This document shows, one piece after another, positions 5,862 through 58,636 of a stretch of 60,120 nt of DNA (position 1 is the stretch's first letter; every line of letters begins with the position of its first letter). Under the pieces are notes generated by a model that saw nothing but the letters and a program-made list of their open reading frames with translations, was not told where the DNA came from and ran no database searches. The position numbers and the translations under genes are program-made. The stretch comes from a virus. The stretch is taken from positions 1 to 60,120 of IMG/VR virus record IMGVR_UViG_3300020044_003577; one strand, given 5' to 3'.

Positions 5862-7502
5862 CTATATCCATGTTGTTTCTAATTGTTGAAAGTTCCCCAT
5901 CTTTTGTGTAAAAGGAACATTAGTCGTTGTTAGTCTATCTCCGTGTGTCCTGATCACTTCCAGAGCAATAGCAAGAGCGATAACGGTATCATCATTGTGA
6001 CCAACAATAGCATTTGTCCTACCATTGTCATCAGCCACATAATTCATTAACTCCCCAATAATAGTTCTTGAAGGTATCCATATTTCCTCTTGTTCAATAG
6101 CACTCTTAAGAAATCCAATAATAGCTGGCTTAGAGGATGTTGTTGTTCTCCAACCCATCCTTAATCCCTCATCCTTGGATACATTAGCCATCTTAGTCTG
6201 ATAATACATATTAACATAGCCCATTTGAACTAGTCTATTTAATGTAGCAATACCCATACTATTAGATTCTACCGCCATTAAAGCGTTATTATAGTATCTT
6301 CCTAGATAAAACAATAGATCCCCAAACTTACTGGGATCAATCATATTATTTCTGTATGTAGCACATACCTCTTTATCTGCATTCATAACTACCGCAGCAG
6401 AATGATCTTTACCTACCCCTAAGGATACGTCCGCAGCTATAACAAAAGATTGATCAAAAGATGGATATTTAAATATCTCAATGGAACCCTGCCTAGCATC
6501 CTCCATCATCATACTCTCAAAGTTAAATTCTCTCTGAGCTAATATTGGTTGTGGTATTAAACTATTTAACTTTTCAATATTAAATACATTAGAACCTGAA
6601 ACAATAAAGGCTTCTTCAGGAGTCGCTGGATACTCTTGTTTAAACTTGTCTACCCCACTCTCAGCTATCTTGAGTCTCCTCCAGTATAGTTGATCGTTAT
6701 CTAGGTTAAACCTTGTAACTAATATCTCTTCCTCATCTGTTCTCTCAAACCCCTCAGGTGCCTTCCTACGATATTCAGACATAAGAAACCAAGGTACGAA
6801 TATAGGTATATATTCATTCTTACCAGCTACAGCATCTATCCATAGTCTATGAAATGAATTACCTACCCCATTGGCAGTACTCTCAAGAATAACCTCGGTA
6901 CCGTCTGCTTGGGAAATACCCTGAAATAATCCTGCTAAAATTTTTTCATCATGGAGCCAAAAGGATACTTCTGAAAGATGTGCGATTGTAGGCGTAATAC
7001 CCCTACCCGCCTCAGGAGAACCTGCTGTATAGAGTCTATAACCAGAGTCATTATGTTCAAACATAATCTCTTTTGCGTTAGATCTTTTTAGAGTAGGTGA
7101 GAATGACTCAGGCATATTAGAAATAATATTCCTGGACATAGTAAACAAGGCATCAGATGTTGCGGCATCATGAGCCATAACAACTGACTTGTTGTAAGCA
7201 TTAAAATAAGACTTCCAGAATACTCTACCAGTAGTATAGGTAGAAAGACCCATCTGTCGGGCTTTTAGGATAATAGCCCTGACTTTCCCAGTCTCCTTTA
7301 GTTGACCCTCAATCGCATCATTAACAATCTTTTGTGCATCGTTAAAGTCAAATGGTTGGAATCCTAGTCGGGAGTCTTTGGGTAGAATCTTGATTTGCTC
7401 TTTCGCAAATAATTCAAAGTTATTTTGGTATTCTGCGAGTTTTTCTCTGCGCTTTAGTTCCCTTAAAGCCTCTAGCTTGCGGGTGTTTGAGATAGTTGTC
7501 AT
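5862..7502 (-). CDS. terminase large subunit
   Basis: 546 aa. It has a Walker-A-like KARQMGLST and a C-terminal RNase-H-like nuclease with acidic motifs (AADVSLGVGKDHSAAVVM, GHNDDTVIALAIAL). It is the first gene after late promoter copy P1. Confidence 0.85.
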   Translation of the reverse strand: MTTISNTRKLEALRELKRREKLAEYQNNFELFAKEQIKILPKDSRLGFQPFDFNDAQKIVNDAIEGQLKETGKVRAIILKARQMGLSTYTTGRVFWKSYFNAYNKSVVMAHDAATSDALFTMSRNIISNMPESFSPTLKRSNAKEIMFEHNDSGYRLYTAGSPEAGRGITPTIAHLSEVSFWLHDEKILAGLFQGISQADGTEVILESTANGVGNSFHRLWIDAVAGKNEYIPIFVPWFLMSEYRRKAPEGFERTDEEEILVTRFNLDNDQLYWRRLKIAESGVDKFKQEYPATPEEAFIVSGSNVFNIEKLNSLIPQPILAQREFNFESMMMEDARQGSIEIFKYPSFDQSFVIAADVSLGVGKDHSAAVVMNADKEVCATYRNNMIDPSKFGDLLFYLGRYYNNALMAVESNSMGIATLNRLVQMGYVNMYYQTKMANVSKDEGLRMGWRTTTSSKPAIIGFLKSAIEQEEIWIPSRTIIGELMNYVADDNGRTNAIVGHNDDTVIALAIALEVIRTHGDRLTTTNVPFTQKMGNFQQLETTWI

Positions 7503-7517
7503 GGGGGTTTCGTTATA

Positions 7518-7541
7518 GTTTCTCTATTAGGGGACTACTCT
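7518..7541 (-). promoter_or_regulatory. phage-RNAP promoter motif copy P1 (late arm, upstream of TerL)
   Basis: The minus strand reads AGAGTAGTCCCCTAATAGAGAAAC, with core GTCCCCTAATAG at 7524-7535. It is about 20 nt upstream of the TerL ATG. The TAATAG(G/A) end resembles the T7 class III ..CTATAGGGAGA. Confidence 0.6.
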
Positions 7542-7590
7542 TTATACTTTTTTCTATAGCCCCTTAGTCTTTGTGTGTGAAAAAGAATCA

Positions 7591-7977
7591 TGGGTTTGTT
7601 TGTTCTCCCCTCCCTGTGTCGTGTGACCCCCCTGTCTCGTGGTGGTCGGTCGTGCTGCGGTGTCGGGTCGTTCTTGTCTCTCTTCCTCTGTCGGTGGTGC
7701 TGTGGCGCTGGTGCTGTCGACTTCCTTTGTTAGCGCTGTCTTGGAGTTCATTATGCGTTCTATCCTCTTGTTCGTTTGTCTTCGCCGTGGTTTTGGTTTG
7801 TCCTTCTCTACTGCCTGTGGTCACTTGCTTAATGCTTGGGGTCGTAGTGAGTGGTACAGTGACATGTCTACTGTTGACCTGTTCCTGTTGGCTACTCGTA
7901 AGTCTTAAGGGCTTTCTCGGTTGGCTCCTTGTGGGGCTTTCCGAGAGCGTCTTGCTCTGTTCTAAAAGGGGTTTGTT
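7591..7977 (+). other. adenine-depleted, strand-asymmetric non-coding leader
   Basis: By my count there are 2 A in 7591-7720, 7 A in 7591-7800 and 34 A in 7591-8040. The rest is T/G/C. Because stop codons need A (or T on the other strand), all six frames are open, which explains the four overlapping track ORFs here. Confidence 0.85.
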
Positions 7978-8193
7978 ATGTCTTCTTCTTTTGTTGTCTA
8001 CGCTGTGTCTGCCTCTGCTCCTCAGTGTGTTGTTGCTAGCTTTGATACTGTTGCTGAAGCTAATGCTGCTGCTTGGTTGGCTAACTCTATCGATAATACT
8101 TGTGACTATCGTGTTGATGAGGTCTTGCTTGGTGACTTGCTTTGTTCTGAGTGGAAGACCAAGGAGAGAATGTCAGGATACGAATTACTTTAA
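7978..8193 (+). CDS. first early protein (71 aa, net acidic), unknown function
   Basis: ATG preceded by AAAAGGGG. The composition is protein-like (MSSSFVVYAVSASAPQCVVASFDTVAEANAAAWLANSIDNTCDYRVDEVLLGDLL..) although its codons continue the A-poor bias. Confidence 0.55.
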   Translation: MSSSFVVYAVSASAPQCVVASFDTVAEANAAAWLANSIDNTCDYRVDEVLLGDLLCSEWKTKERMSGYELL

Positions 8194-8205
8194 TAAGATC
8201 TCTGC

Positions 8206-8247
8206 CTATTGGGTGTAACAACCCAATGGAGAGCGATCTTGCTCTGT
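8206..8247 (+). promoter_or_regulatory. early intergenic hairpin module 1
   Basis: Hairpin ATTGGGT/ACCCAAT (8208-8214 with 8221-8227), loop GTAACA. It is followed by hairpin AGAGC-GATCTT-GCTCT (8230-8245). The second hairpin has a near-copy, AGAGC-GTCTT-GCTCT, at 7944-7958. No U-tract follows. Confidence 0.35.
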
Positions 8248-8274
8248 GTCCGTACATAACTCAAGGAGATTAAC

Positions 8275-8472
8275 ATGTACACAACCCTTAACATCCTCAC
8301 TGCATTTCTGTGGTATAGTGCTGCTGCATGGTCTATCGATGCTATCTATGTCGAAGGTCAAGGTGGTTTGCTACCTATCTTCGTATTGCTAGGATCAGGT
8401 GTGCTTGCTGGTATGCAATCAATAGACTTGATTCGTGATCTTAAAGACAAACACAACCAAGGAGAACTGTAA
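8275..8472 (+). CDS. small membrane protein (65 aa)
   Basis: AAGGAG RBS; two hydrophobic segments (ILTAFLWYSAAAW, LLPIFVLLGSGVLAG). Confidence 0.7.
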   Translation: MYTTLNILTAFLWYSAAAWSIDAIYVEGQGGLLPIFVLLGSGVLAGMQSIDLIRDLKDKHNQGEL

Positions 8473-8579
8473 TGTATTTCATCTACCATAGACTCACTAA
8501 GGTATTGATCGCCAAGACTACATCTGTCAAGGTGCTCAATGAGTACGATCCACAATACTATGAAGTAGTAACATACTGA
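8472..8579 (+). CDS. possible 35-aa ORF
   Basis: TAATG stop/start overlap with the previous gene. Hand translation: MYFIYHRLTKVLIAKTTSVKVLNEYDPQYYEVVTY. Confidence 0.3.
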   Translation: MYFIYHRLTKVLIAKTTSVKVLNEYDPQYYEVVTY

Positions 8580-8586
8580 TAGTACA

Positions 8587-8633
8587 CTCTTCACGAGTAT
8601 AAGTGAGACCAGGGCATCAGGGGTAAGTACCTG
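8587..8633 (+). promoter_or_regulatory. early intergenic hairpin module 2
   Basis: CTCTTCAC-GAGTATAA-GTGAGACC (stem 8590-8594 with 8603-8607), then CAGG-GGTAAGTA-CCTG (8618-8633). It has the same layout as module 3, with compensatory stem changes. Confidence 0.4.
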
Positions 8634-8684
8634 CCTATGGGATGGTAACATACCACCTATTCACATTAACTCAAGGAGAACGTT

Positions 8685-8975
8685 ATGTCAGTAGCATCAG
8701 TCAAACCAGCCTTTGCAATCAAGGGCGATACAACAACAACAGCCTACACATCTACACCATCTATCCTGATGGCAGTCTTTGTAGATAAAGAGAACAAATA
8801 CTGGTATGCAGTAGATGACCAACAAACTATCCGTAAGATGTCCATCACAAGAGATGTTGAACATGCTCGTAGAGAGTATAAGATTGCTCGTAACCTTGTA
8901 GGCAAGAAAGTATACTTCGGTGTCACACAAGGATGGGATGGTAATGTATGGTTTAATGAAGTAATCGAAGCATAA
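8685..8975 (+). CDS. hypothetical early protein (96 aa)
   Basis: AAGGAG RBS, clean ORF. Confidence 0.75.
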   Translation: MSVASVKPAFAIKGDTTTTAYTSTPSILMAVFVDKENKYWYAVDDQQTIRKMSITRDVEHARREYKIARNLVGKKVYFGVTQGWDGNVWFNEVIEA

Positions 8976-8984
8976 CTAGCAATG

Positions 8985-9031
8985 CTCTTCTCGGGTAGAT
9001 AACTGAGAGACCTCTTGGGGTAAGTACCAAG
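8985..9031 (+). promoter_or_regulatory. early intergenic hairpin module 3
   Basis: CTCTTCTC-GGGTAGATAACT-GAGAGACC (stem 8988-8992 with 9005-9009), then CTTGG-GGTAAGTA-CCAAG (9014-9031). The loop is identical to module 2 but the stems differ and remain complementary. Confidence 0.4.
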
Positions 9032-9064
9032 GCCACATAACACACTCACCACAAGGGGATAAAC

Positions 9065-9313
9065 ATGCGATACATATTGTTAACACCAGTAACACCAGAT
9101 GACTTCTGCCTAGACACCTTTGAAGAAGTCCAAGAGTCAGCACAAGAGTTTGGTTGTGATATCTTGTTATCAACAAAGATAACAGGAGGAACAGTAGCAT
9201 TCTTCGTAGCTAAAACAAAGGAAGCACTTGAAGGAATGTGCTCTCAGGTAGACTTAGATGGTACCGTATTAGGGTACTCAGAGACCTATGACCAACTAGT
9301 GAGGGTATTATGA
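9065..9313 (+). CDS. hypothetical early protein (82 aa)
   Basis: AAGGGG RBS, clean ORF. Confidence 0.7.
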   Translation: MRYILLTPVTPDDFCLDTFEEVQESAQEFGCDILLSTKITGGTVAFFVAKTKEALEGMCSQVDLDGTVLGYSETYDQLVRVL

Positions 9314-9501
9314 TATACGATACCTATATGACGTTACCATTAGAACAGTTCCTAGAAGAACTTAAACAAGAAAGGGATAGGAGGGTATACCAGAGGACAA
9401 AATCTTTGCAAGAAGCACTACAGGGATATACCCAGACATATACCCAACAGACAACTGAGGGAAGTCATGCAGAGAACGTAGCGAGAGGAGGTTTTTTGTA
9501 G
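9310..9501 (+). CDS. hypothetical early protein (63 aa)
   Basis: ATGA start/stop overlap with the previous gene. Confidence 0.6.
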   Translation: MIYDTYMTLPLEQFLEELKQERDRRVYQRTKSLQEALQGYTQTYTQQTTEGSHAENVARGGFL

Positions 9502-9566
9502 AAAGTATTTTGTGTGTGCTGAAAGTGTAACAAAGTGAATCAAAATGAACATAAAGGAAAGTTCAA

Positions 9567-9878
9567 ATGAGCAAACAACAACTCATAAAAAGTCTCCTAA
9601 AAATAGCAAAAGAATACTTCAACGAACGTAACAAAGCGACTGATGCCTATCATTTTGGTATATGCTATCTATTAAATTATGACGAAGCTCATTCTTTCTC
9701 AGAAAAACTAGACAAACTAAACTTAAACACGGAATCCTCAGGAATAGTCTCAGGGTATCTCAAGAAAACCTACAGATACGCTTTCACAAAAGAGACCGCA
9801 AGAGAATACTTCAAAGACCGTGCCTATTTCTGCCTCGTATTTGCTGAATATCTAAAACAAAAGAAAGGAAAACTCTAA
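9567..9878 (+). CDS. hypothetical early protein (103 aa)
   Basis: AAGGAAAG RBS. The 9-mer GTGTAACAA (9525-9533), shared with the loop region of hairpin 1, lies 34 nt upstream. Confidence 0.7.
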   Translation: MSKQQLIKSLLKIAKEYFNERNKATDAYHFGICYLLNYDEAHSFSEKLDKLNLNTESSGIVSGYLKKTYRYAFTKETAREYFKDRAYFCLVFAEYLKQKKGKL

Positions 9879-10207
9879 TGAAACAACACATCCATCATGA
9901 CGCCATCATAGCATGGGCTAAAGGACAAGAGATAGAATTCTTATCTGACAATGGTAAATGGTTAAAAGCTGACACACCAATGTGGTGGGAGGATATGCAG
10001 TACAGAATCAAACCCACACCAGTCATCCAAGACTTAACCTTCAACCTCTACATTAACAGTGTAGAACAACTAGCCTTAAGATTCGAAGAGAAAGGAGTAG
10101 GTAGAGTACATCCATCCTATAAAGCCATAGGGAAAATAAATGTAACAATGCAAGACAAAGAAATCGTTAACTATTCAGTAGACATCAACAAAGGAACAAC
10201 AATATGA
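9878..10207 (+). CDS. hypothetical protein (109 aa)
   Basis: TAATG coupling. The AWAKGQEIEF..W..P.WW....YRIKP pattern is common in phage ORFans, as I recall. Confidence 0.7.
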   Translation: MKQHIHHDAIIAWAKGQEIEFLSDNGKWLKADTPMWWEDMQYRIKPTPVIQDLTFNLYINSVEQLALRFEEKGVGRVHPSYKAIGKINVTMQDKEIVNYSVDINKGTTI

Positions 10208-10638
10208 ATCCCGAAATCAAACAACTGTGGTTAGAAGCCTTACGTTCAGGTAAATATGAGCAAGGTAAATCTCTACTCAGGCCAGATGATAACAGTTACT
10301 GTTGTCTAGGTGTGCTATGCCAGATAGCAGAAGAAAGAGGTATATGTAAATATGTTCCTTCAGACACGCATAAAGGATTCACAGTAGGATATCCAGATGT
10401 ATTTCAAGATGGTTATGATGACGGAAATCTATACGAAGACTCAGAACTACCTTGGGTAGTAAAGCAATGGGCAGGAGTAGAAAGCGAAAATCCTAAAATA
10501 ACACTAAATGAAAAGAACATTAAAGAATATTTCAAAGGTACAATGCAAGATAATACAAAAGTGTCCTTAGCTGAGTTAAACGACAACTTCGGATATACAT
10601 TCGCAGAACTAGCAGACATCATCGAGGAGCAATTATGA
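10204..10638 (+). CDS. hypothetical protein (144 aa) with W..ALRSGKY..CCLGVLC motif
   Basis: ATGA coupling, clean ORF. The motif is recalled from phage and bacterial hypothetical proteins. Confidence 0.7.
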   Translation: MNPEIKQLWLEALRSGKYEQGKSLLRPDDNSYCCLGVLCQIAEERGICKYVPSDTHKGFTVGYPDVFQDGYDDGNLYEDSELPWVVKQWAGVESENPKITLNEKNIKEYFKGTMQDNTKVSLAELNDNFGYTFAELADIIEEQL

Positions 10639-12318: not shown

Positions 12319-12828
12319 ATGACAGTAGCAACAAATGACACAGTTAACGTAATCATCAAAGATGTAGAATTACATTGGGCTAAATTAGATAAGCCTGTTG
12401 ATCCATTCGGTACATTACAGTATGAATTACAGATTCAGGCTCCCAAGAAACGTGAAAAAGAGTTAGCTGTTTTCGGTAAAGTTAAAGCCATTGATGGTGG
12501 TAAAATCTCTATCAATCTTAAGAAGAAAGCTCTTAAGGCTGATGGTAGTGATGCTGCTAAAGTACGTGTAGTAGATGCCACTAAAGAAGCCCTTGATCCA
12601 AAGCTTATCGGTAATGGTTCTATCGGTAATGTTATGGTTATGCAGAAACCTTATGAGATCAAAGCTCCTAACGGTAAAGTAACCAAGTCAGGTATCTCCA
12701 ATATGCTCACAGCTGTACAAGTTACTAAGCTTGTTAAATATGAACGTAAAAGTGAAAACTTTGTAGACTTCGATGCTGAAGAGTCTACTGGTGTTACAGC
12801 CGCTTCAGGTGATGATTCACCATTCTAA
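12319..12828 (+). CDS. single-stranded DNA-binding protein, T7 gp2.5-like
   Basis: 169 aa. The acidic C-terminal tail ends in an aromatic residue (..EESTGVTAASGDDSPF), as in gp2.5-type SSBs. It heads the replication block and is followed by a strong terminator. Confidence 0.6.
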   Translation: MTVATNDTVNVIIKDVELHWAKLDKPVDPFGTLQYELQIQAPKKREKELAVFGKVKAIDGGKISINLKKKALKADGSDAAKVRVVDATKEALDPKLIGNGSIGNVMVMQKPYEIKAPNGKVTKSGISNMLTAVQVTKLVKYERKSENFVDFDAEESTGVTAASGDDSPF

Positions 12829-12838
12829 ATATAATTAA

Positions 12839-12871
12839 CCCTTCAAGGAATCCTCTTTGAAGGGTTTTTTA
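12839..12871 (+). terminator. intrinsic terminator after the SSB gene
   Basis: CCCTTCAA..TTGAAGGG 8-bp stem followed by TTTTTT. Confidence 0.75.
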
Positions 12872-12908
12872 TTAACTAGTTATAGCTAACTAATATCAAA
12901 GGTAGTAT

Positions 12909-26424: not shown

Positions 26425-28626
26425 ATGAATCCAGTACAATATCTATCTGAAAGAGTAGCCAAAGTCGTGGTCAACTCAGATAAGATTTATAATGAGGGTG
26501 CTCGACTACTAGCACATCATCCAACATGGGAATATGACTTAGAAAGGTTTGTAAATGAATCGTGGGACACACTTCTCCGCTACTGTATTCGCAACAAGAA
26601 TGCAACTCATAGCGCATCAGTTAAACTTACTTTTGCAAGTGACCTTATCGGAAAACGAATCGCAAGAGCTATTGGAACTGATGAAAGCAACATCAAATCA
26701 ACTCTCGCTCTTGGAGACATTCTACTCGAAACATTTCTCCAAGATAGCTTAATAGATATCTTCAGAGAGTATGATGGATTTAAGGCTCCATATATGGTAC
26801 GTATTGTCAATATGCCTGACAATATTAAGCCTACATTAATAGGTACTTCATTTGAACCTTTGTTACCTATAGCTGGTCTATATAGTAACCTTACTAAAGA
26901 GCCATTCATTAAGGGATGGACTAACAGTAAACTGTTTCATGAGTACTTAGATAAACCTTTTGTACGTGCATTAGAAACATTACGCCAACAACCTTGGGTA
27001 TTAAATCAGGGTGTGTTAGAAGGTATGAGGAATTATAAGCCAACTGAAATACTAGAGTTGGTTGATGATGATGGTGTGCTATATAACTACAACATTCATT
27101 ATGAAAATTTAGAACTACCAAAGAAACTTAAGCACCTAGATGGTACTTCTTTCCTTGGTAAGAAAGACCCTAAGCTACAACGTATGCTTAGTAAGTTCTT
27201 TGAATACAATCAAGTAGTAAAGAAAGCTGAATTGATTGGTGATAGATCATTCTATCAAGAAGTATCCTGTGACTATCGTGGTCGAGTATACTATGCTGAA
27301 TCCTTCTTAGAGTTTCAGGGTAGTGACTTAGCTCGTAGTCTCTTTTTATTTCAGAATAAAAAAGAGATGGATGATCGTGGTTACTTCTGGCTTAAGGTTC
27401 ATACAGCAGGATGCTATAATGAATCCTTTAATGTTAATAAATTACCACATTATTTTACTACTGACTATAAGACCTATTTAAAAGGAGAAGGTTTAGATAC
27501 TATTTCTCTTGATAAGATGACCCTTGAAGACAGAGCTATATGGGTAGATAATAACCTAGCTAAGATAGCTAGTATTGCTAATCATTATTATATAGATACC
27601 TCTGCTGAAAAGCCATATAGCTTACTAGCTTGTTGTCTTGAAATTAAAGCATATACACAGGCTAGATCTAAAAGTAAGAAGCATATGTCTGGTCTTCCTA
27701 TCCCTATCGATGGTAGTAATAATGGATGGCAACATCTGGCAGCTATGTCTAGAGATACCCAGGCAGCTACATTAGTGTCATTAGTACCTACACCTATACA
27801 GAAAGACTTCTATGTAGCTGTGGCTAAAGAACTAATTAACATCATGCCTGACTACTTTAAGCAAAAGAATATGCCTATGAAAGATATCCGTAAAGGTATT
27901 GCTAAACGAGGCTCCATGACTCGTGCGTACTCAGCAGGTAAACAGCGTATTGCTAAAAATATGTATGATGACTGCCATGTAGAAGGATTCACTGTTAAGT
28001 ATAATATCACAGAAAAAGAATGTGGAGATCTAGCAGGTAACTTAATTAAAGCTATCAATGCAGTATGCTCTGGTCCATTAAAGACAACTAAGTTTTTACA
28101 AAAAATTGCTGAACATGAACTTAACTCTGGTCGTAATCAGCTATCATGGCATACACCCTCAGGATTTCCTGTAGTATATAAAGCATTTCTCCAACATGAA
28201 CGTAAACATAGAGGTACTATCAGGGGTATACCTGGAAACCCCAAAGGAAGGATTAGACATGTTATTAAAGTGGATGTACTCAACAAAGACACAGGTGAAA
28301 AAGTTCCTTGTAGGCGCTCCTTTGCCTCTGGTATCAGTCCTAACGTTGTCCACAGTTACGATGCTGCTCATATGGCTAACGTTATCTCTATCTTTAATGG
28401 AAATTTTGGTGCTGTCCATGATAGTTTCAGTACTCATGCCAGCGAGGTAGACTTCTTACAGGAAGTAACTAAGATGACCTTTGTAGCACAGTATGATATA
28501 GACAATTTCTTTAGTAATCTTATGAATACATTAATGCTTAACAAAGATACATTCACCTATCCTCCACCAGAAGAAGGTACATTAGATTTAAAACAAGTCT
28601 ATGAATCTAAATACTTTTTCTGCTAG
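26425..28626 (+). CDS. T7-like single-subunit DNA-dependent RNA polymerase (733 aa)
   Basis: CDYRGRVYY (T/DxxGR); motif A PIDGSNNGWQHLAAM; motif B AKRGSMTRAYSAG; SPNVVHSYDAAHM; motif C AVHDSFSTH. Confidence 0.9.
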   Translation: MNPVQYLSERVAKVVVNSDKIYNEGARLLAHHPTWEYDLERFVNESWDTLLRYCIRNKNATHSASVKLTFASDLIGKRIARAIGTDESNIKSTLALGDILLETFLQDSLIDIFREYDGFKAPYMVRIVNMPDNIKPTLIGTSFEPLLPIAGLYSNLTKEPFIKGWTNSKLFHEYLDKPFVRALETLRQQPWVLNQGVLEGMRNYKPTEILELVDDDGVLYNYNIHYENLELPKKLKHLDGTSFLGKKDPKLQRMLSKFFEYNQVVKKAELIGDRSFYQEVSCDYRGRVYYAESFLEFQGSDLARSLFLFQNKKEMDDRGYFWLKVHTAGCYNESFNVNKLPHYFTTDYKTYLKGEGLDTISLDKMTLEDRAIWVDNNLAKIASIANHYYIDTSAEKPYSLLACCLEIKAYTQARSKSKKHMSGLPIPIDGSNNGWQHLAAMSRDTQAATLVSLVPTPIQKDFYVAVAKELINIMPDYFKQKNMPMKDIRKGIAKRGSMTRAYSAGKQRIAKNMYDDCHVEGFTVKYNITEKECGDLAGNLIKAINAVCSGPLKTTKFLQKIAEHELNSGRNQLSWHTPSGFPVVYKAFLQHERKHRGTIRGIPGNPKGRIRHVIKVDVLNKDTGEKVPCRRSFASGISPNVVHSYDAAHMANVISIFNGNFGAVHDSFSTHASEVDFLQEVTKMTFVAQYDIDNFFSNLMNTLMLNKDTFTYPPPEEGTLDLKQVYESKYFFC

Positions 28627-30818: not shown

Positions 30819-30893
30819 TGCGGAGTAGCTCAATGGTAGAGCAGGGGACTCATAATCCCTTGGTCACTGGTTCGATCCCAGTTTCCGCAACCA
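30819..30893 (+). tRNA. tRNA with CAT anticodon (Met, fMet or Ile2; undecided), CCA encoded
   Basis: Hand-folded cloverleaf. Acceptor TGCGGAG/TTCCGCA; D arm GCTC-AATGGTA-GAGC; anticodon arm GGGGA-CTCATAA-TCCCT; T arm ACTGG-TTCGATC-CCAGT; discriminator A plus CCA. Confidence 0.85.
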
Positions 30894-30904
30894 TTCAAGA
30901 ATAT

Positions 30905-30979
30905 AGCGGGATAGCTCAGTAGGAGAGCGCTGGACTCATAATCCAGAGGTCGGTGGTGCGAATCCACTTTCCGCAACCA
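30905..30979 (+). tRNA. second tRNA with CAT anticodon, A1xA72 mismatch, CCA encoded
   Basis: Acceptor AGCGGGA/TTCCGCA (positions 1-72 unpaired); D arm GCTC-AGTAGGA-GAGC; anticodon arm CTGGA-CTCATAA-TCCAG; T arm GGTGG-TGCGAAT-CCACT. Confidence 0.8.
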
Positions 30980-31354: not shown

Positions 31355-31429
31355 GGGTCATTAGTTCAATGGATAGAACAGTGATCTTCTAAGTCACGAG
31401 TGCATGTTCGATTCATGCATGACCCACCA
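31355..31429 (+). tRNA. tRNA-Arg (anticodon TCT), CCA encoded
   Basis: Acceptor GGGTCAT/ATGACCC; D arm GTTC-AATGGATA-GAAC; anticodon arm GTGAT-CTTCTAA-GTCAC; T arm GCATG-TTCGATT-CATGC; discriminator A plus CCA. Confidence 0.85.
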
Positions 31430-32582: not shown

Positions 32583-32833
32583 AACAATATCAGAACTATA
32601 ACATCTTTGCTTTAAGAGGTGATCGAGAGACATCTGACATGGATGTATGTACAAATCTAGGGTTAGACCCTAAACTAGCTGGTACGCCAGATATTAATGA
32701 AGCTGCTATCCGAAAGATGCACAAAGAAAATTATGAAGGATACCTTACAAAAGGTTATTCTCCAGATGAAGCATTATCTTTGGCTGATACAAATGCAGAT
32801 AGTGTTCGTAAAGAAATTAAAAGACTGATTTAA
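32579..32833 (+). CDS. hypothetical protein (84 aa), last gene of the plus arm
   Basis: ATGA coupling, clean ORF. Confidence 0.65.
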   Translation: MKQYQNYNIFALRGDRETSDMDVCTNLGLDPKLAGTPDINEAAIRKMHKENYEGYLTKGYSPDEALSLADTNADSVRKEIKRLI

Positions 32834-32880
32834 AAAAAAATAGCCCTTCAAGGAATTATCCTTGAGGGGCTTTTTATTTT
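32832..32880. terminator. bidirectional intrinsic terminator at the convergence of the two arms
   Basis: 12-bp stem GCCCTTCAAGGA/TCCTTGAGGGGC (32843-32854 with 32859-32870), loop ATTA. It is flanked by an A-run upstream and a T-run downstream. Confidence 0.8.
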
Positions 32881-53278: not shown

Positions 53279-53488
53279 TCATACTCCTATTAAATGTTTA
53301 ATAAAATCTGCTGCAGTACCTGGACCTAATAATACACATAGCATTACGCCATAAAGTAAATATTCAATCTTAGTCATACGAGCAGCGCCATCAGAAAGAC
53401 TTTTAGATATATTAGCATATCGTTCTGCACACACTTGTTCGTGTGTCATTAATTTAGCTTCTGTTAAAGTTACAGTATTATCTGTCAT
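53279..53488 (-). CDS. small membrane protein (69 aa; holin/antiholin candidate)
   Basis: Single C-terminal TM segment IEYLLYGVMLCVLLGPG. ATGA coupling to the fibre gene stop. Confidence 0.55.
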   Translation of the reverse strand: MTDNTVTLTEAKLMTHEQVCAERYANISKSLSDGAARMTKIEYLLYGVMLCVLLGPGTAADFIKHLIGV

Positions 53489-56400
53489 TATCTTGATTCC
53501 TTTAATTTTTTAATTTCTTCTTCAAGAGATAATACTCTTTGGGCTAATTGAACACACGCTACTAAAGCAGCATTTCCATATGCAACAGATAAGTCTCCAT
53601 TATTATCTTCTAACACTGCATGTTCAAGCACCAAACGAAGTGATTGAGCAGACACACCAACTTGTGTAGCACCATTATCTATACGATCATATACACCATG
53701 CTTAACTTGTGATAGTTGTTCAACAAAGTCAGTAGGTAAATCTTGCCAATTAGTTTTCTTACGTTCATCAGAAGATGCTGATACAGTGCCTGTTGCAGTT
53801 AAATTTACAACAGTATAGCTGTTTGCAGTATTCAAAGCATCAGCAGTAGCAGCAGTTGTTGCTGTAGTTGCTGTAGTTGCAGTGGTAGCTGTAGTTGCTG
53901 TAGCAGCATTACCTGTACAAGAACCTGAAGAACCATCAATATTAATACCTGTTAATGATTGCGTAGCACTTGCTCTATTAACTGCAATACTTGTTGTACC
54001 TAAATTAAAAGAGGATGTAGTATAAAAGCCATTAGTTACCGTAGCCGCATTACCTGTGCATGAAGCAGATGAACCTGTTGTGTTTTGATTAAGCGTTGGA
54101 AATGTACAGTTAGTCAAAGTGCCGCTTGATGGTGTACCAAGTGCGCCCCCACTAACCAGATTCCCGCTTGCAGTACCAGTTAAAGCTGCGGTAATAGTTC
54201 CTGCACTAAAATTACCTGATGCATCTCTAGCAACAATAGTACTTGCTGTATTTGCATTTGTTGCGTTAGATGTAACTGTAAATGTAGCTGCGGTAGATTG
54301 ATTTGCAGTAAATGTTTGTGAACCAGATAACCCTGTTCCTGATACTGCTAATGTTAATGTACCGTTGTTTACATTACTTGCTGTAGTTGCTGTAGCAGCA
54401 TTACCTGTACAAGAACCTGAAGAACCAGTTGTATTTTGATTTAATGTAGGTATATCAGCAGCAACAATAGCCCTAAATGTAGCATTACCAGCTGTTCCAT
54501 TAGGTGCGGCATAAAAATAATTAGCTATTTGAGAACCAGATAAACCAGCAGCAGTGCCTGTTGTGTTTTGATTTAAAGTAGGAAATGTACAGTTGGTTAA
54601 AGTGCCGCTTGATGGAGTACCTAATGCACCACCTTGAACAACAATAGTTGAACTTGCGTCAGGTAATGTATAAGTTTTTTCTGCTGTTGTTGCACCAGTA
54701 AACTTAGTAAATCCATTACCAGTACCACCATAAGTAGATGAAATAATGTTTGTTACATCTGCTGAACCATTAAATGAGCCACCATGAATTGATCTTGATG
54801 TTGTTAATGTAGCTGCAGAACCTGTTGTATTTTGATTTAATGTAGGAAATGTACAGTTGGTTAATGTACCACTAGCAGGTGTACCTAATGCAGGTGTAAC
54901 TAAAGTAGGTGATGTAGATAATACAACATTACCACTACCCGTAGTACTATAAGAAATACCCCAAGCACTACCTGTAGAATTTACAATACCTGCACCTGGA
55001 TAAGTAAAAGTACTTGGTGCAGCAAATTGAGTAAATATAATACCAGTAGTTCCTATTGTAATAGGTAGTAATGTTTGTTGTACCCAAGAAGTATTTGTGT
55101 TAATTGTACCTGACAATATTAAAAGAAAGTCACCAGCATCAACTTCATTAGTACCTGTACCTGAAGTATCATAGTCTGTTGCACGAGTTAATACCCATCC
55201 AGCAACCCCTGATCCAACACTAGTAACAGTATACACACCATTTTGTGAGGTAGTTGTTTGATTTTTAACTAATATACGTTGACCTACAGAAGGAGATGCA
55301 CTATCAATAGATAATGCTGCAAATGTAGTTATTTTAGTTAATGTAGCTCCTACGCCTGATGTGCCATTATTATAGGATACTGTGCCTAAATCTGCAGTTG
55401 TAGCATAGTTGCATGCTGCATGAAAGTTAATACCTGAGACAACAGAATCAACATAAAGTTTATTAGCAATATCAGTATTTGCAGAAGGAGCGGTTGATAT
55501 TGTACCTGTTGTTAAAGCAACAGAAGTAATATCTGTATTTGCACCTGATTTAGCAGCACTTAAATTTGTTCTTGCAGTGGCTGTATTAATTACATCAGAT
55601 AAGTTATTAGCAGCAAGCAACACACCTGCAGCAGATACATAAGCTACCAACCATACAGAACCTGTATACACCTTCATAACAGAATCAGTTGTATTAAAAT
55701 ATAATGCACCTGTTAATAAAGCATTACCATCATTATCTAATGTAGGATTAGAAGCTTTTGCCCCAAGATACCTGTCATCAAAAGAATCATATGAAGCGGC
55801 AGCAGCTAAAGCAGAGGTATTAGCATTGCTAGCTGAAGTAGAAGCAGATGATGCGCTAGATGCCGCATTAGTTGCTTGAGTAGTTGCAATACCTGCTTGT
55901 GTTGTAGCCGTTGTTGCACTTGTTGTTGCACTACTTGCTTGGGTAGTGGCTATACCTGCCTGAGTAGTTGCGGTTGATGCACTAGTGGAAGCAGATGATG
56001 CACTAGATGCCGCATTAGTTGCAGAAGTCCCAGCAGAAGTAGCTGATGCACTTGCTGATGTAGCACTATTAGAAGCATTAGTAGCATTTGTTGAGGCAGA
56101 AGATGCACTACTAGCTGAATTAGAAGCATAAGTACTTGCAGATGTTGCCGATGATGCTGCATTAGTTGCCTGAGTAGTAGCGGTACTTGCTTGGGTAGTG
56201 GCTATACCTGCTTGAGTAGTTGCTGTAGTTGCACTAGTAGAAGCTGAAGAAGCACTAGCAGAGGCGTTAGAGGCTTGAGTAGTAGCTATACCCGCTTGAG
56301 TAGTTGCTGTTGTTGCTGAACCAGAGGCTGATGTAGCACTACTAGCAGCATTAGTTGCTGATGTAGAAGCTTCACTTGCTTTTGTGGTAGCTGTTGTTGC

Positions 56401-57015
56401 TGATGTGCTTGCAGAAGTAGCTGAACTAGCAGCATTAGTTGCTGAAGTAGAAGCACTGCTTGCAGATGTTGCTGCATTAGTTGCACTTGTAGAAGCACCA
56501 CTAGCAGATGTTGCAGCATTAGTTGCGCTAGTTGCAGCAGCAGTAGCTCTAGTAGTAGCTAAAGCTGCTTGAGTAGTAGCGGTATTTGCTTGAGTAGTAG
56601 CAGTTGTTGCGCTAGTAGAAGCATTTGATGCAGATGTTGCAGCATTAGATGCACTTGTAGAAGCGTTAGATGCAGATGTTCCTGCAGATGTAGATGAGGT
56701 AGATGCGCTACTTGCAGAACTTGCAGCAGCAGTAGCGCTAGCCGCCGCCGCTATAGCACTTGCAGCAGCATCATTAGCATCTTCAGCAGCAATATTTGCG
56801 TATTGTACTGCGGTTACTGTATCAATATTATCGTATTCACCACCAGCAGAGACACTTCCCGTCATGCCTGGGGCTTGCTGATAACCTGATGTATTTGTAG
56901 GTGCGTCAGAAGCAACAGTATTAACTGTTTGTTCAGCACTAGTTTGTGCTAAATCTCCATACTCACCACCAGCAGCCATACCTGCAGTAACCCCAGCTGT
57001 TTGTTGGTATCCCAT
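53488..57015 (-). CDS. tail fibre (1175 aa) with Ala/Ser/Thr heptad array, repeated modules and C-terminal intramolecular-chaperone (peptidase S74-like) domain
   Basis: Fibre motif DDRYLGAKASNPTLDNDGNALLTGALYFNTTDSVMKVYTGSVW. GGALGTPSSGTLTNCTFPTLNQNTTG is repeated. The C-terminal SASSDERKKTNW...LSLEEEIKKLK resembles self-cleaving chaperone domains. Confidence 0.8.
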   Translation of the reverse strand: MGYQQTAGVTAGMAAGGEYGDLAQTSAEQTVNTVASDAPTNTSGYQQAPGMTGSVSAGGEYDNIDTVTAVQYANIAAEDANDAAASAIAAAASATAAASSASSASTSSTSAGTSASNASTSASNAATSASNASTSATTATTQANTATTQAALATTRATAAATSATNAATSASGASTSATNAATSASSASTSATNAASSATSASTSATTATTKASEASTSATNAASSATSASGSATTATTQAGIATTQASNASASASSASTSATTATTQAGIATTQASTATTQATNAASSATSASTYASNSASSASSASTNATNASNSATSASASATSAGTSATNAASSASSASTSASTATTQAGIATTQASSATTSATTATTQAGIATTQATNAASSASSASTSASNANTSALAAAASYDSFDDRYLGAKASNPTLDNDGNALLTGALYFNTTDSVMKVYTGSVWLVAYVSAAGVLLAANNLSDVINTATARTNLSAAKSGANTDITSVALTTGTISTAPSANTDIANKLYVDSVVSGINFHAACNYATTADLGTVSYNNGTSGVGATLTKITTFAALSIDSASPSVGQRILVKNQTTTSQNGVYTVTSVGSGVAGWVLTRATDYDTSGTGTNEVDAGDFLLILSGTINTNTSWVQQTLLPITIGTTGIIFTQFAAPSTFTYPGAGIVNSTGSAWGISYSTTGSGNVVLSTSPTLVTPALGTPASGTLTNCTFPTLNQNTTGSAATLTTSRSIHGGSFNGSADVTNIISSTYGGTGNGFTKFTGATTAEKTYTLPDASSTIVVQGGALGTPSSGTLTNCTFPTLNQNTTGTAAGLSGSQIANYFYAAPNGTAGNATFRAIVAADIPTLNQNTTGSSGSCTGNAATATTASNVNNGTLTLAVSGTGLSGSQTFTANQSTAATFTVTSNATNANTASTIVARDASGNFSAGTITAALTGTASGNLVSGGALGTPSSGTLTNCTFPTLNQNTTGSSASCTGNAATVTNGFYTTSSFNLGTTSIAVNRASATQSLTGINIDGSSGSCTGNAATATTATTATTATTATTAATADALNTANSYTVVNLTATGTVSASSDERKKTNWQDLPTDFVEQLSQVKHGVYDRIDNGATQVGVSAQSLRLVLEHAVLEDNNGDLSVAYGNAALVACVQLAQRVLSLEEEIKKLKESR
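55792..56790 (-). repeat. intragenic low-complexity array encoding about 45 heptads (A-x-x-S-A-x-x)
   Basis: Fibre residues ~76-408 (ASTSATN AATSASS ASTSATT ATTQAGI ..). This generates the shadow ORFs 55950..56162, 56286..56519 and 56384..56572. Confidence 0.85.
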
Positions 57016-57026
57016 TTGGTGTCTCC

Positions 57027-57941
57027 TTAAATCAATCCGTTAGTATTAAAGTTAACTTGTACGTTACCACCAGATGCTCTACGCCATTTTTCTTCTTTAT
57101 TGAGTGAGAACACATTTTCATTAAATCGTTTCTCATAACGTTGTTCCATTATATGGTCAAACATGTATGCACCTAAGTTATATAAAGCACCCCATACAAC
57201 TAGTCTTTCATTATTATCTCTTAACCAATTAGATACTTCTTTACCAATATAGTATTTAGTTGTTACTGTAGCATTGTATGCAGCAGCCTCTGCGTATGTT
57301 GCAAAACATCTTGTAACAGAAGATGCAGTAGAAAAATATAGTGGAGTGTCAGTAGTTATACCTGTAAGTGTTAAATAGGGTTGATCAGCATCTGACAAAG
57401 CAATTAAATAGTTAATTGGTATAACACTATAAAGAGCATTTAATGCAGGTAATCTACGATAATAATGTATCTCTACTTCTGCACCTACTGCTAGCTGAGG
57501 ATGAATATAGATTTTACCGTCTTTCCACATCCAGTTATATACAGAATATTTTTCTGAATATAAGTCAAAGAAGGTACGTGTGTCAGTAACCTCATTAAAT
57601 ACCTTACTTACATTAGAAGGGTAGGTAGAGTATGCTGTACCAATATTATCTTGTGCTAAAGTTCTAATATAAATAAATTGGGTTAAGTCTTCAGGAATAG
57701 CAAAAGAAGTATAAGCATTACCATAAGGCATACCTAAACTATTTTCTCCTGAATTATCTGCAGTTGCAACTGTATATACAACAGTAGCTTCTAATGGAGG
57801 AATACGTAGTTGTCTGTAGCATTCGTCAGCAGAATAAGATAAGCAATCCTGAATAACAACATCTGGAATATTGTTGATATCTTGTCTACCAGACCATGTT
57901 CTAACTTTTGCAATAAGTTGGTCATATTTAGGTGTGCTCAT
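57027..57941 (-). CDS. virion protein, paralogue A (304 aa; head-tail adaptor region)
   Basis: The N-terminus MSTPKYDQLIAKVRTWSGRQDINNIPDVVIQDCLSYSADECYRQLRIP is clearly homologous to the next gene upstream. Confidence 0.65.
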   Translation of the reverse strand: MSTPKYDQLIAKVRTWSGRQDINNIPDVVIQDCLSYSADECYRQLRIPPLEATVVYTVATADNSGENSLGMPYGNAYTSFAIPEDLTQFIYIRTLAQDNIGTAYSTYPSNVSKVFNEVTDTRTFFDLYSEKYSVYNWMWKDGKIYIHPQLAVGAEVEIHYYRRLPALNALYSVIPINYLIALSDADQPYLTLTGITTDTPLYFSTASSVTRCFATYAEAAAYNATVTTKYYIGKEVSNWLRDNNERLVVWGALYNLGAYMFDHIMEQRYEKRFNENVFSLNKEEKWRRASGGNVQVNFNTNGLI

Positions 57942-58636
57942 ACTGTTACCTTTCTAGTGTTCTGTGCAGCAATAGCTTGCTTAATATCCAATGGTAACAA
58001 CGAACGAGCTTTATCTTCTTTAAGATTCAGCATATCAATGTTCTCAAGCGCCATTTCTTTATAACGCATTTTAGATGTATCATCAAATAAATACGCAAAC
58101 AAATAAGATAAAGAACCCCATAACAAAATGTATTCTTTATCGTCACGTAGCCAATTGTAAGTTTCAACTCCACCATTGTCCGATGAATCTAATGCACCAA
58201 GTTTACGATAAAATGTGCTTTCAATAACTGTTCCAACAGGAAGCTGTGGGTAAATATAAATATATTCGTCACGCCACATCCAACTATAAGTATTATCTAA
58301 CGGCTTATACTGTTCAAAGAAACCCTTTTTATCTAGTGTTTCTACAAATCGGTAATTATTATTAGTAGGTGACACACAACGTATTGAAAGAAATTCAATT
58401 AAACTAGTTGGTACAGCAAATTGTGTGTATGGTTTACTTGTGTTAATATTATCACCAGAAATAACAGTGTGGTTTTCTGTGTGTTCTAATTGAGGCGTAC
58501 GAAGTTTTTGATAACAGAAATCAGCAGAATAGTTTAAACAATCCTGAATGACGCTGTCGGGTATAGTTGCTACTTCGGGTTTATTACTCCAGTCTCTTAC
58601 TTTAGCGACTAAAGCGTCAAATCTAGGTGTTGCCAT
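57938..58636 (-). CDS. virion protein, paralogue B (232 aa)
   Basis: MATPRFDALVAKVRDWSNKPEVATIPDSVIQDCLNYSADFCYQKLRTP. The motifs YSWMWRDEYIYIYPQLPVG versus YNWMWKDGKIYIHPQLAVG and NWLRD are also shared. Confidence 0.65.
   Translation of the reverse strand: MATPRFDALVAKVRDWSNKPEVATIPDSVIQDCLNYSADFCYQKLRTPQLEHTENHTVISGDNINTSKPYTQFAVPTSLIEFLSIRCVSPTNNNYRFVETLDKKGFFEQYKPLDNTYSWMWRDEYIYIYPQLPVGTVIESTFYRKLGALDSSDNGGVETYNWLRDDKEYILLWGSLSYLFAYLFDDTSKMRYKEMALENIDMLNLKEDKARSLLPLDIKQAIAAQNTRKVTV

Follow-up and report, generated by a model that had tools for sequence, protein, structure and literature searches.

A strand-specific adenine-poor tract at the head of the early operon in CRP-7-like podoviruses

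The leading end of phage T7 carries the host promoters A1–A3 and gene 0.3 (Ocr), and entry of the genome is driven by transcription. The first-step-transfer DNA of T5 is free of EcoRI sites, and the EcoP15I sites of T7 lie in one orientation. At the RNA level, messages that lack ACA or a comparable motif escape MazF-type mRNA interferases. The nearest described phenomenon to the one reported here is the no-A tract of vertebrate signal sequences (ALREX), which is 35–40 nucleotides (nt) long, is tied to nuclear export, is under nucleotide-level selection and was reported to be absent from bacteria (PMC2100149). Here we describe a tract almost devoid of adenine on one strand, starting at position 7591 of the viral contig IMGVR_UViG_3300020044_003577 (the window, i.e., the entire 60,120-nt contig), at the head of a phage early operon. 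A full-text literature search retrieved no account of such a phage region, and the paper on Roseobacter phage CRP-7, the closest cultured relative, is silent on an A-free zone; the tract is thus apparently undescribed in these phages.

Extent, conservation and positional nature of the tract

On the plus strand, adenine occurs twice in 7591–7720, 7 times in 7591–7800 and 34 times in 7591–8040, and a recount reproduced these three figures of a preliminary description of the locus exactly. The other three bases are all abundant, as stated there, with 48 T, 44 G and 36 C among the 130 nt of 7591–7720. This segment is the genome-wide 130-nt minimum for adenine (2 against a mean of 40.8, standard deviation 8.0, over 60,120 nt), and the corresponding minima for C (8), G (9) and T (17) come nowhere near such depletion. 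Likewise, A-free runs are longest here: the top four in the genome (93, 47, 35 and 35 nt) fall inside 7591–7945, the fifth measuring 31 nt. At 31% A, we calculate a probability of ~6e-16 per position for a 93-nt run, so that the A-free runs are not attributable to chance. Five of the six reading frames are free of stops in 7591–7720 but only two over 7591–8040, which limits the earlier remark that all six are open to something close to it in the first 130 nt.

A terminase search of IMG/VR returned 205 relatives, and 80 loci (cited by L numbers where needed) were fetched. Comparing composition among relatives had been proposed in the preliminary description, and nearly every locus with sufficient upstream flank indeed shows an A-poor zone on the same strand, mostly a stronger one, with A-free runs of 156, 227, 242 and 259 nt and zones of up to ~850 nt. 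The zone is conserved in ~60 related upstream regions, in CRP-7 and in marine CRP-7-type contigs, and has been retained by two clades that are deeply diverged and infect different hosts. No such zone was seen in CRP-6 (which shares the host of CRP-7 but belongs to a different lineage), T7 or Syn5. Behind a conserved box that directly precedes it, mean adenine content per 50-nt bin, computed over 41 semi-non-redundant lineages, runs 7.0, 0.3, 3.7, 4.2, 6.1, 11.3, 13.8% and onward to 28% at ~950 nt, the lowest value lying in the untranslated leader at positions 51–100 after the box. In CRP-7, A-free runs of 224, 168 and 104 nt occupy 57384–58106, directly 5′ of gp01, and nine small genes stand between the terminase gene and the zone, which argues that the zone tracks the early operon and not the terminase. 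The adenine-poor tract is real, extreme and deeply conserved.

The depletion does not stop at coding sequence. In relatives, whole proteins are encoded almost without adenine, e.g., by a 212-codon open reading frame (ORF) with 6 adenines. Genes in the zone use R for K, V or L for I and S for T, together with GTG starts and GGGG Shine-Dalgarno sites; their start regions hold one adenine, pairing GTG with GGAG(G), or ATG with GGGG, and the adenines left over sit chiefly in GAC, GAG, TAC and ATG. In the window, 25–35% of the residues of the two zone genes need an A-containing codon, as against ~50% in later genes. Synonymous choice of A-poor codons does carry the bias into the first genes, as had been described: A ends 0 of 12 four-fold codons in the first (7753–7908) and 1 of 24 in the second (7978–8193), in which the share of A climbs toward the 3′ end. 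In later genes this fraction is 0.30–0.69.

The clearest evidence on the level at which selection acts comes from a putative OB-fold protein that is absent from the window and is the first gene in many lineages, with 2.3–3.8% A and in some cases a GTG start. Its homologue in L076, located ~720 nt from the leader, has 27.6% A, compared with 2.6% beside the leader (BLASTP E 7e-14). Of 109 aligned columns, the normal form has an A-requiring residue at 51 and the A-free form at 9. T gives way to S/A/V, I to V/L, K to R/A/G and Q/N/E to S/A; an invariant C-S-D motif and one Tyr are kept in both. That the same protein is of normal or of A-poor composition according to its distance from the leader indicates the purge to be positional, acting on the nucleic acid and not on the protein. 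The tentative fold assignment draws on a confident AF2 model (pLDDT 88) whose top Foldseek matches are all OB-folds, namely Stn1/Ten1, RPA, the LysRS anticodon domain and toxin B subunits, each weak (E 3e-3 or weaker, TM 0.4–0.5); the family has no Pfam or PHROGs match, and a word-index homology search found close hypothetical relatives only.

It is therefore well supported that sense-strand adenine is purged by selection on the nucleic acid itself, which recodes whichever gene sits there, and that the purge peaks 50–100 nt behind the box and fades over 150–850 nt depending on the lineage. Equally well supported is the identity of the tract as the 5′ end of a rightward early operon, made up of the box, a structured leader of ~160 nt, a cassette of small genes and then ordinary genes.

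As an observation on the genes behind the zone, A-ending four-fold codons make up 0.57–0.69 in four of the five early genes at 8685–10638 (0.32 in 9567–9878) and 0.30–0.39 in the polymerase genes, the 8685–10638 genes being biased in the opposite direction to the zone.

Organization of the operon head and its putative leader RNA

The phage is, with good support, a CRP-7-like podovirus with its own T7-type RNA polymerase. A single-subunit polymerase of this type is encoded at 26425–28626 (PHROG 414, E 5e-95; Pfam RNA_pol, E 4e-56), large internal virion proteins are encoded as well, and the layout is identical to that of CRP-7. From ~7590 to 32.8 kb, a rightward block specifies a gp2.5-like single-strand-binding protein (SSB), dCMP deaminase, DNA polymerase, exonuclease, primase/helicase, the RNA polymerase and ribonucleotide reductase. 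A leftward block extends from the terminase large subunit gene (7502) round the circle through portal and tail genes, circularity being an assembly overlap indicated by a 121-nt end repeat that falls within a gene. The tract was thus rightly placed at the early/late divergence, with the terminase gene at 5862–7502 pointing leftward and the early/replication block rightward. The terminase shares 63% nucleotide identity with that of CRP-7, and its nearest solved structure is T4 gp17 (E 1e-15). The features of the region are as follows.

5862..7502, minus strand: terminase large subunit (TerL), first gene of the leftward structural block, marking the divergence point (Pfam Terminase_6N/6C)
7503..7566, no strand assigned: short divergent intergenic region, AT-rich, containing the inverted repeat AGGGG...CCCCT (read directly)
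7567..7590, plus strand: conserved box GTCTTTGTGTGTG-AAAAAGAATCA, holding the last adenines ahead of the A-free zone; single copy in the genome
7591..7752, plus strand: A-free leader that does not code, with 4 A among 162 nt (counts and alignment of 51 leaders)
7753..7908, plus strand: first cassette gene, 51 amino acids, basic (isoelectric point (pI) 9.5), 11% A; protein conserved in L002, L005, L010, L011 and, at greater distance, L014
7908..7959, plus strand: three-tier intergenic hairpin (7908–7953), then CTTGCTCTG; minimum free energy −30.4 kcal/mol, z −3.9; same element in L001 and L050
7978..8193, plus strand: second cassette gene, 71 amino acids, acidic (pI 4.1; 10 D/E against 4 K/R), 18.5% A; homologues in L002 and L011
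8194..8246, plus strand: second copy of the three-tier hairpin (8194–8241) plus CTTGCTCTG, end of the variable cassette; minimum free energy −25.5 kcal/mol, z −5.4
8275..8472, plus strand: first conserved early gene whose composition is normal, encoding a small membrane protein; its Shine-Dalgarno site, AAGGAG, is strong; found downstream of the cassette in most relatives compared

The box follows the pattern TGTGTG(T..)AAA(A)GAATCA, which a regular-expression search found in 57 of 65 related upstream regions, always immediately 5′ of the zone; in the window, the A-free run begins right behind it at 7591. The box is our candidate for the early promoter, or its −10 and start region. A simple scan for the sigma-70 consensus detected no promoter in 7503–7566, and a repeat search for phage-polymerase promoters gave no repeats involving the box. 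In relatives, GGGG-tract repeats in phase (TTTTGGGGGA-like) occupy the divergent intergenic region, frequently accompanied by a GGGGTACCCC palindrome, examples being L029, L030, L040, L062, L078 and, in CRP-7, L081:9380-9440. The upstream region of L078 additionally contains a tandem TTTAATAGAGAGTGT array, and GGTACC is the most under-represented 6-bp palindrome of the window genome (6 against 19.8).

Behind the box, the first 130–160 nt do not code for protein. Close relatives lack the ATG at 7590, so the ORF it would open (7590–7733) is not conserved. The earlier label of a leader fits this first part, but not the relatives' zones as a whole, where most of the A-free tract is protein-coding. 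Elements of the leader are a C6 run (7627–7632), a stem-loop (7690–7721), a boxA-like GCGCTGTCTT (7733–7742) and a GGAG Shine-Dalgarno site (7743–7746). The stem-loop has 13 pairs, five of them G-C, is followed by TTCCTTTGTT and scores as terminator-like in a scan, with a 3′ tail that is just moderately U-rich. Its loop, UGGCGC (7703–7708), is one of two invariant leader motifs, the other being CUGCGCU. The arms covary via G-C, G.U and A-U pairs, one pair taking five canonical types in 18 distinct sequences; G.U pairs are formed by RNA only. Downstream stands a GCGCU(C/G)UUU motif, which we take, as a lead, to resemble boxA, and GCGCUCUUU and UUGCUCUGU motifs stand behind the conserved hairpins.

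Other indicators of structure were mixed. An Rfam scan of 7000–9000 matched no family except for a lone chance hit to an internal ribosome entry site (E = 1), RNAalifold on 28 leaders returned just one invariant 5-bp helix, and the share of leader adenines located in stems (11 of 13) is not above expectation. Single-sequence z-scores are 0.24 for the window leader and −2.8 to −4.6 for relatives, and the antisense strand of one relative's leader folds as well as the sense strand. With regard to expression, metatranscriptome contigs (Logan) from two freshwater studies cover 7505–7729 and 7519–7784, spanning box and leader. The first ends at the U-tail of the leader hairpin, which fits an attenuated leader RNA; since DNA carry-over is possible, this coverage lends weak support.

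The second cassette gene (7978–8193) had been taken for the first real ORF, but the conserved 51-codon ORF at 7753–7908, with its GGAG Shine-Dalgarno site, precedes it. The product of the latter has no PHROG match; that of 7978–8193 has no Pfam or PHROG match, its Protein Atlas matches are all sub-threshold, and distant look-alikes in L014 and L070 are unconfirmed. The hairpin element at 7908–7959, whose adenines within 7908–7953 are kept at base-paired positions, is possibly a processing site, a 3′ stabilizer or a nut-like element. Cassette content differs between lineages; the region is hypervariable and a recombination hot spot. By 8275–8472 the zone is over: adenine at third positions (A3) is 0.28 in this gene, and 43% of its residues require A.

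Within the CRP-7 zone lies an unannotated ORF of 128 codons with 1.8% A and a GGGG Shine-Dalgarno site (L081:9694-10077 (+), i.e., ~57608–57991). The annotated gp72 (57271–57966, opposite strand) is probably a phantom ORF, its frame being open because a T-free strand has no stop codons. First-gene proteins of L001, L029, L040 and CRP-7 (L081:9694) share an N-terminal MS(F/S)S(S)F.S.LPV(L/V)G, a peptide which suggests that a 5′ coding module is conserved or that leader and gene meet at a recombination joint. The 212-amino-acid protein of L040 and the CRP-7 protein also agree in a motif at the C terminus, G.(W/Y)FCAVS (BLASTP E no better than 0.04).

Elsewhere in the genome, two adjacent tRNA-Met(CAT) genes occupy 30819–30979, and one for tRNA-Arg(TCT) lies at 31355–31429; the latter, also present in CRP-7, reads AGA, a codon class kept out of the zone. 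Near-identical hairpin plus T-run elements (AGCCCTTCAAGGAAT..CTTGAAGGGTTTTTTATT) at 12826–12873, behind the SSB gene, and at 32831–32878, at the convergent junction of the gene blocks, are probably intrinsic terminators. An array of 21-nt periodicity at 55849–56673, with 17 overlapping copies of a 111-nt unit, sits within a gene (53488–57015) for a tail-fibre-like protein of 1175 amino acids.

Candidate reasons for the exclusion of adenine

The zone looks deliberate, and its purpose is a matter of interpretation. Our tentative preference, held at less than even confidence, is that the first message is shielded from adenine-dependent attack on RNA. The object of selection would then be the transcript: a first message nearly free of unpaired adenines, its helices built from G-C and G.U pairs, relying on GGGG Shine-Dalgarno sites or GUG starts and on A-less codons, would leave adenine-dependent attack on single-stranded RNA without targets. 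Candidate attackers would be endoribonucleases of the HEPN, MazF or ToxN type, or adenine-modifying enzymes. Thereby the naked leader, whose hairpin and motif resemble boxB/boxA, would persist along with the first cistrons until the first proteins, probably host-takeover or counter-defence factors, are made, and later genes would no longer need the shield. Consistent with a transcript as the target, the zone is invariably on the sense strand and begins at the putative transcription start, helices include G.U pairs, structured elements stand between cistrons, and the A-poorest part is the untranslated leader, which ribosomes would not cover. Moreover, removal of one adenine would have to be worth about as much as a good start codon or Shine-Dalgarno site, and a hazard at every adenine fits this better than a risk from rare recognition sites.

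Several points weigh against this reading. The leader transcript is putative in its start, strand and half-life, as is its promoter; the box has an AAGAAT-like hexamer, and a consensus scan gives no sigma-70 match there. We know of no specific adenine-dependent RNase that is universal in hosts. The RNA is U-rich and therefore not protected from RNase E-type cleavage, cuts in the leader need not abolish coding capacity, and the first 45 nt still hold a few adenines (7%). A-rich early genes, with A3 up to 0.69, follow just downstream on what is presumably the same transcript. Furthermore, the most avoided words inside the zone are palindromes, both GC-only and W-centred, so that DNA-level selection acts there too, and the A-poor left ends of phiKMV and LUZ19, which lie upstream of their promoters, hint at a DNA-level phenomenon.

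A DNA-level shield, a possibility to which we assign a somewhat lower but still appreciable likelihood, would make the zone the first DNA exposed in the cell, its A-less strand being without Type I, head-to-head Type III or A/T-palindrome targets. The cassette genes, possibly anti-restriction, would thereby be expressed ahead of restriction, as in T7 (Ocr and slow entry) and T5, both established precedents. This is close to the preliminary proposal of a restriction-proof entering leader followed by an Ocr-like gene. In its favour, the tract does head the early operon, the phage encodes both a T7-type RNA polymerase and large internal virion proteins, and the window genome is under strong, selective restriction-site avoidance: CCGG and CGCG are each absent from the 60 kb (zero-order expectation ~70 each), with an observed/expected ratio (O/E) of 0.46 for CpG. 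Within zones, the lowest O/E values belong to GGCC, CCGG and CGCG among 81 4-mers and to CGTCG, CGGCG and CCTGG among 198 5-mers, and palindromic 4-mers number 9 in the window zone, compared with 25.7 on average. In phiKMV (L146:1-800) and LUZ19 (L147:1-700), whose left ends are known, the first 700–800 bp, i.e., the terminal repeat plus ~300–400 bp, upstream of the annotated sigma-70 promoters, have 2–11% A on the top strand compared with ~25% just downstream.

Several points speak against a DNA-level shield. Ends of related contigs scatter within the variable cassette with no fixed end, TerL is T4-like, and the DNA upstream of the box, which in the window stretches just 88 nt to TerL, is not A-poor on either strand. 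The universally A-free core of 100–150 nt offers negligible restriction-target space, too small to shift the restriction risk by much. The absolute density of CCGG and GGCC is alike inside and outside the zone. In the transition region A/T palindromes are not specially avoided, GATC having an O/E of 1.18. The exclusion of every A/T palindrome claimed for the tract holds inside the A-free runs, but five 6-bp palindromes (GTCGAC, AGCGCT, ACATGT, CTTAAG and GCTAGC) remain over 7591–8040. By our estimate each adenine carries a tiny restriction risk (~1e-4 or less), whereas the price paid includes ATG starts, GGAGG sites and ~40 residues per protein. Finally, the small acidic first gene of the preliminary description corresponds to 7978–8193, which is indeed small and acidic (a point for the comparison with Ocr) but is the second gene, the first being basic; the acidic protein matches no Ocr or ArdA family.

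Concerning site usage more generally, GGCC has an O/E of 0.63 over the whole genome and GCGC is not avoided; the words avoided in the window genome are avoided more weakly in relatives (O/E ~0.45–0.5).

An improbable further reading at the RNA level is a positive signal, in which the A-free tract or its fold would be recognized by an RNA-binding factor, e.g., a cold-shock or S1-type OB-fold protein, the proximal face of Hfq or Nus factors, leading to antitermination, localization or translation control, much as with the vertebrate signal-sequence tracts. The leader is conserved in sequence and structure, including its invariant motifs, the hairpin-plus-GCUCUUU layout recalls boxB/boxA as a lead, and the putative OB-fold protein is the first gene in many lineages. 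In vertebrates, loss of adenine from signal-sequence regions, with its preference for L over I and R over K, functions as an RNA signal (PMC2100149). Against this, zone length varies five-fold, the coding part is not conserved in sequence, Rfam gives no match and the RNAalifold consensus structure across lineages is slight. To our knowledge, no bacterial factor reads an absence of A. On balance, an RNA-level reason, be it the shield or the positive signal, is tentatively preferred over a DNA-level one.

Less probable still is a mutational by-product, i.e., promoter-proximal, strand-specific removal of adenine by mutagenesis like that of a diversity-generating retroelement or by damage to the displaced non-template strand. 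The gradient does start at a fixed point and affects any gene placed there, and the adenines that persist are those that selection could plausibly retain (in Asp, Glu and Tyr codons, ATG, Shine-Dalgarno sites and stems). In addition, the pooled composition of the zones (T 40.4, G 29.5, C 27.9%) equals that of the genome with A spread equally over the other three bases, which is compatible with selection against A or with some A-specific mutator. We know of no mechanism that removes A only, however, and exposed-strand deamination does not fit, as it would deplete C and give GC skew, whereas C is enriched and G approximately equals C. The genome has no match to RVT_1 (reverse transcriptase), which was matched in control genomes, and no repeat pair involves the zone; a diversity-generating retroelement, with its template/variable repeat pair, was discarded on these grounds. 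Replacements are, moreover, conservative at the protein level, and deep divergence of clades and hosts has not erased the feature.

That the tract serves as a packaging site, as a terminal repeat, as an origin of replication or in Chi-like control of recombination is very improbable. It adjoins TerL in this clade, the cassette is a recombination hot spot and GT-rich words occur, including GCTGGTGC at 7707–7714, but the zone holds translated, conserved genes, is parted from TerL in CRP-7, and contig ends indicate no fixed terminus. The said octamer, noted earlier as a 7/8 match to Chi, is present but confined to one subgroup, lies in a hairpin arm and is replaced elsewhere, and a Chi hotspot was rejected for this lack of conservation. 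Base modification (U- or hydroxymethyluracil-DNA, with a T-free template strand) was dropped, only ordinary T7-like nucleotide-metabolism genes being seen. By reasoning alone, we discarded a template free of ultraviolet dimers, sigma-70 pausing, H-NS avoidance and primase-site or origin models as not adenine-specific or too small in effect, and Rho avoidance because C is enriched and not depleted.

If a shield is the correct explanation, it would be a form of defence evasion that needs no knowledge of the enemy's recognition sequence, and the genes behind the zone would be the most time-critical ones, probably counter-defence, so that the zone could serve as a compositional flag in metagenomes. 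More speculatively, and with considerable doubt on our part, exclusion of a whole base might be a general immunity trick, in which a three-letter first message and its DNA would be invisible to any system that needs adenine, be it an RNase, an RNA- or DNA-modifying enzyme or adenine-methylation-based restriction-modification. The price, if so, would be natural proteins written in an amino-acid alphabet of 10–13 letters. Such zones may exist elsewhere, for other bases or phages, the A-poor left end of phiKMV being one candidate. Irrespective of its cause, the zone supplies matched natural pairs of one protein with and without A-requiring residues, an experiment on reduced amino-acid alphabets, and gene callers mis-annotate such regions, as probably with gp72 and the unannotated A-free gene of CRP-7. 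As CRP-7 and its host are in culture, the question is open to direct test.

Comparison with known systems

As in the leading end of T7, a podovirus with a single-subunit RNA polymerase places small accessory genes directly behind its first promoters, here a putative one, and the structured hairpins between early cistrons are reminiscent of the RNase III sites of T7. Here, however, late genes are inverted and no Ocr homologue is present, and the T7 left end is not depleted of A (26, 15, 41, 37 ... per 100 nt). With the site bias of T5 and T7 the zone shares the principle that early-exposed DNA is a poor restriction substrate and that strand asymmetry can serve evasion. Those phages avoid particular sites, whereas here a whole base is taken off one strand, straight through coding genes, over only 150–850 nt.

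The left-terminal 700–800 bp of phiKMV and LUZ19 are likewise strand-specifically A-poor and located at the early end of an RNA-polymerase-encoding podovirus. Their tract is milder, does not code for protein, takes in the terminal repeat and sits upstream of the host promoters, and may be unrelated; we found no description of it. Mild A-poverty is also seen over the first 300 nt of SP6, and none in T7 or Syn5.

At the RNA level, the conserved hairpin with its invariant loop, the GCUCUUU-like motif behind the putative early promoter and the hairpin plus UUGCUCUGU between cistrons resemble boxB and boxA of rrn operons and lambda. This likeness, which is a lead only, would account for the motifs of the leader but not for its missing adenine. 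Messages that escape MazF offer a parallel in that silent recoding confers immunity to a sequence-specific RNase. There a single trinucleotide is dropped; here all adenines are, and amino-acid usage is rewritten. We know of no cognate nuclease for an exclusion of all adenines. The closest match is with ALREX tracts, which show the same 5′ adenine depletion, the same choice of L over I and R over K and the same A-less synonymous codons; in comparison, the phage runs extend over 93–259 nt and take in the non-coding leader.

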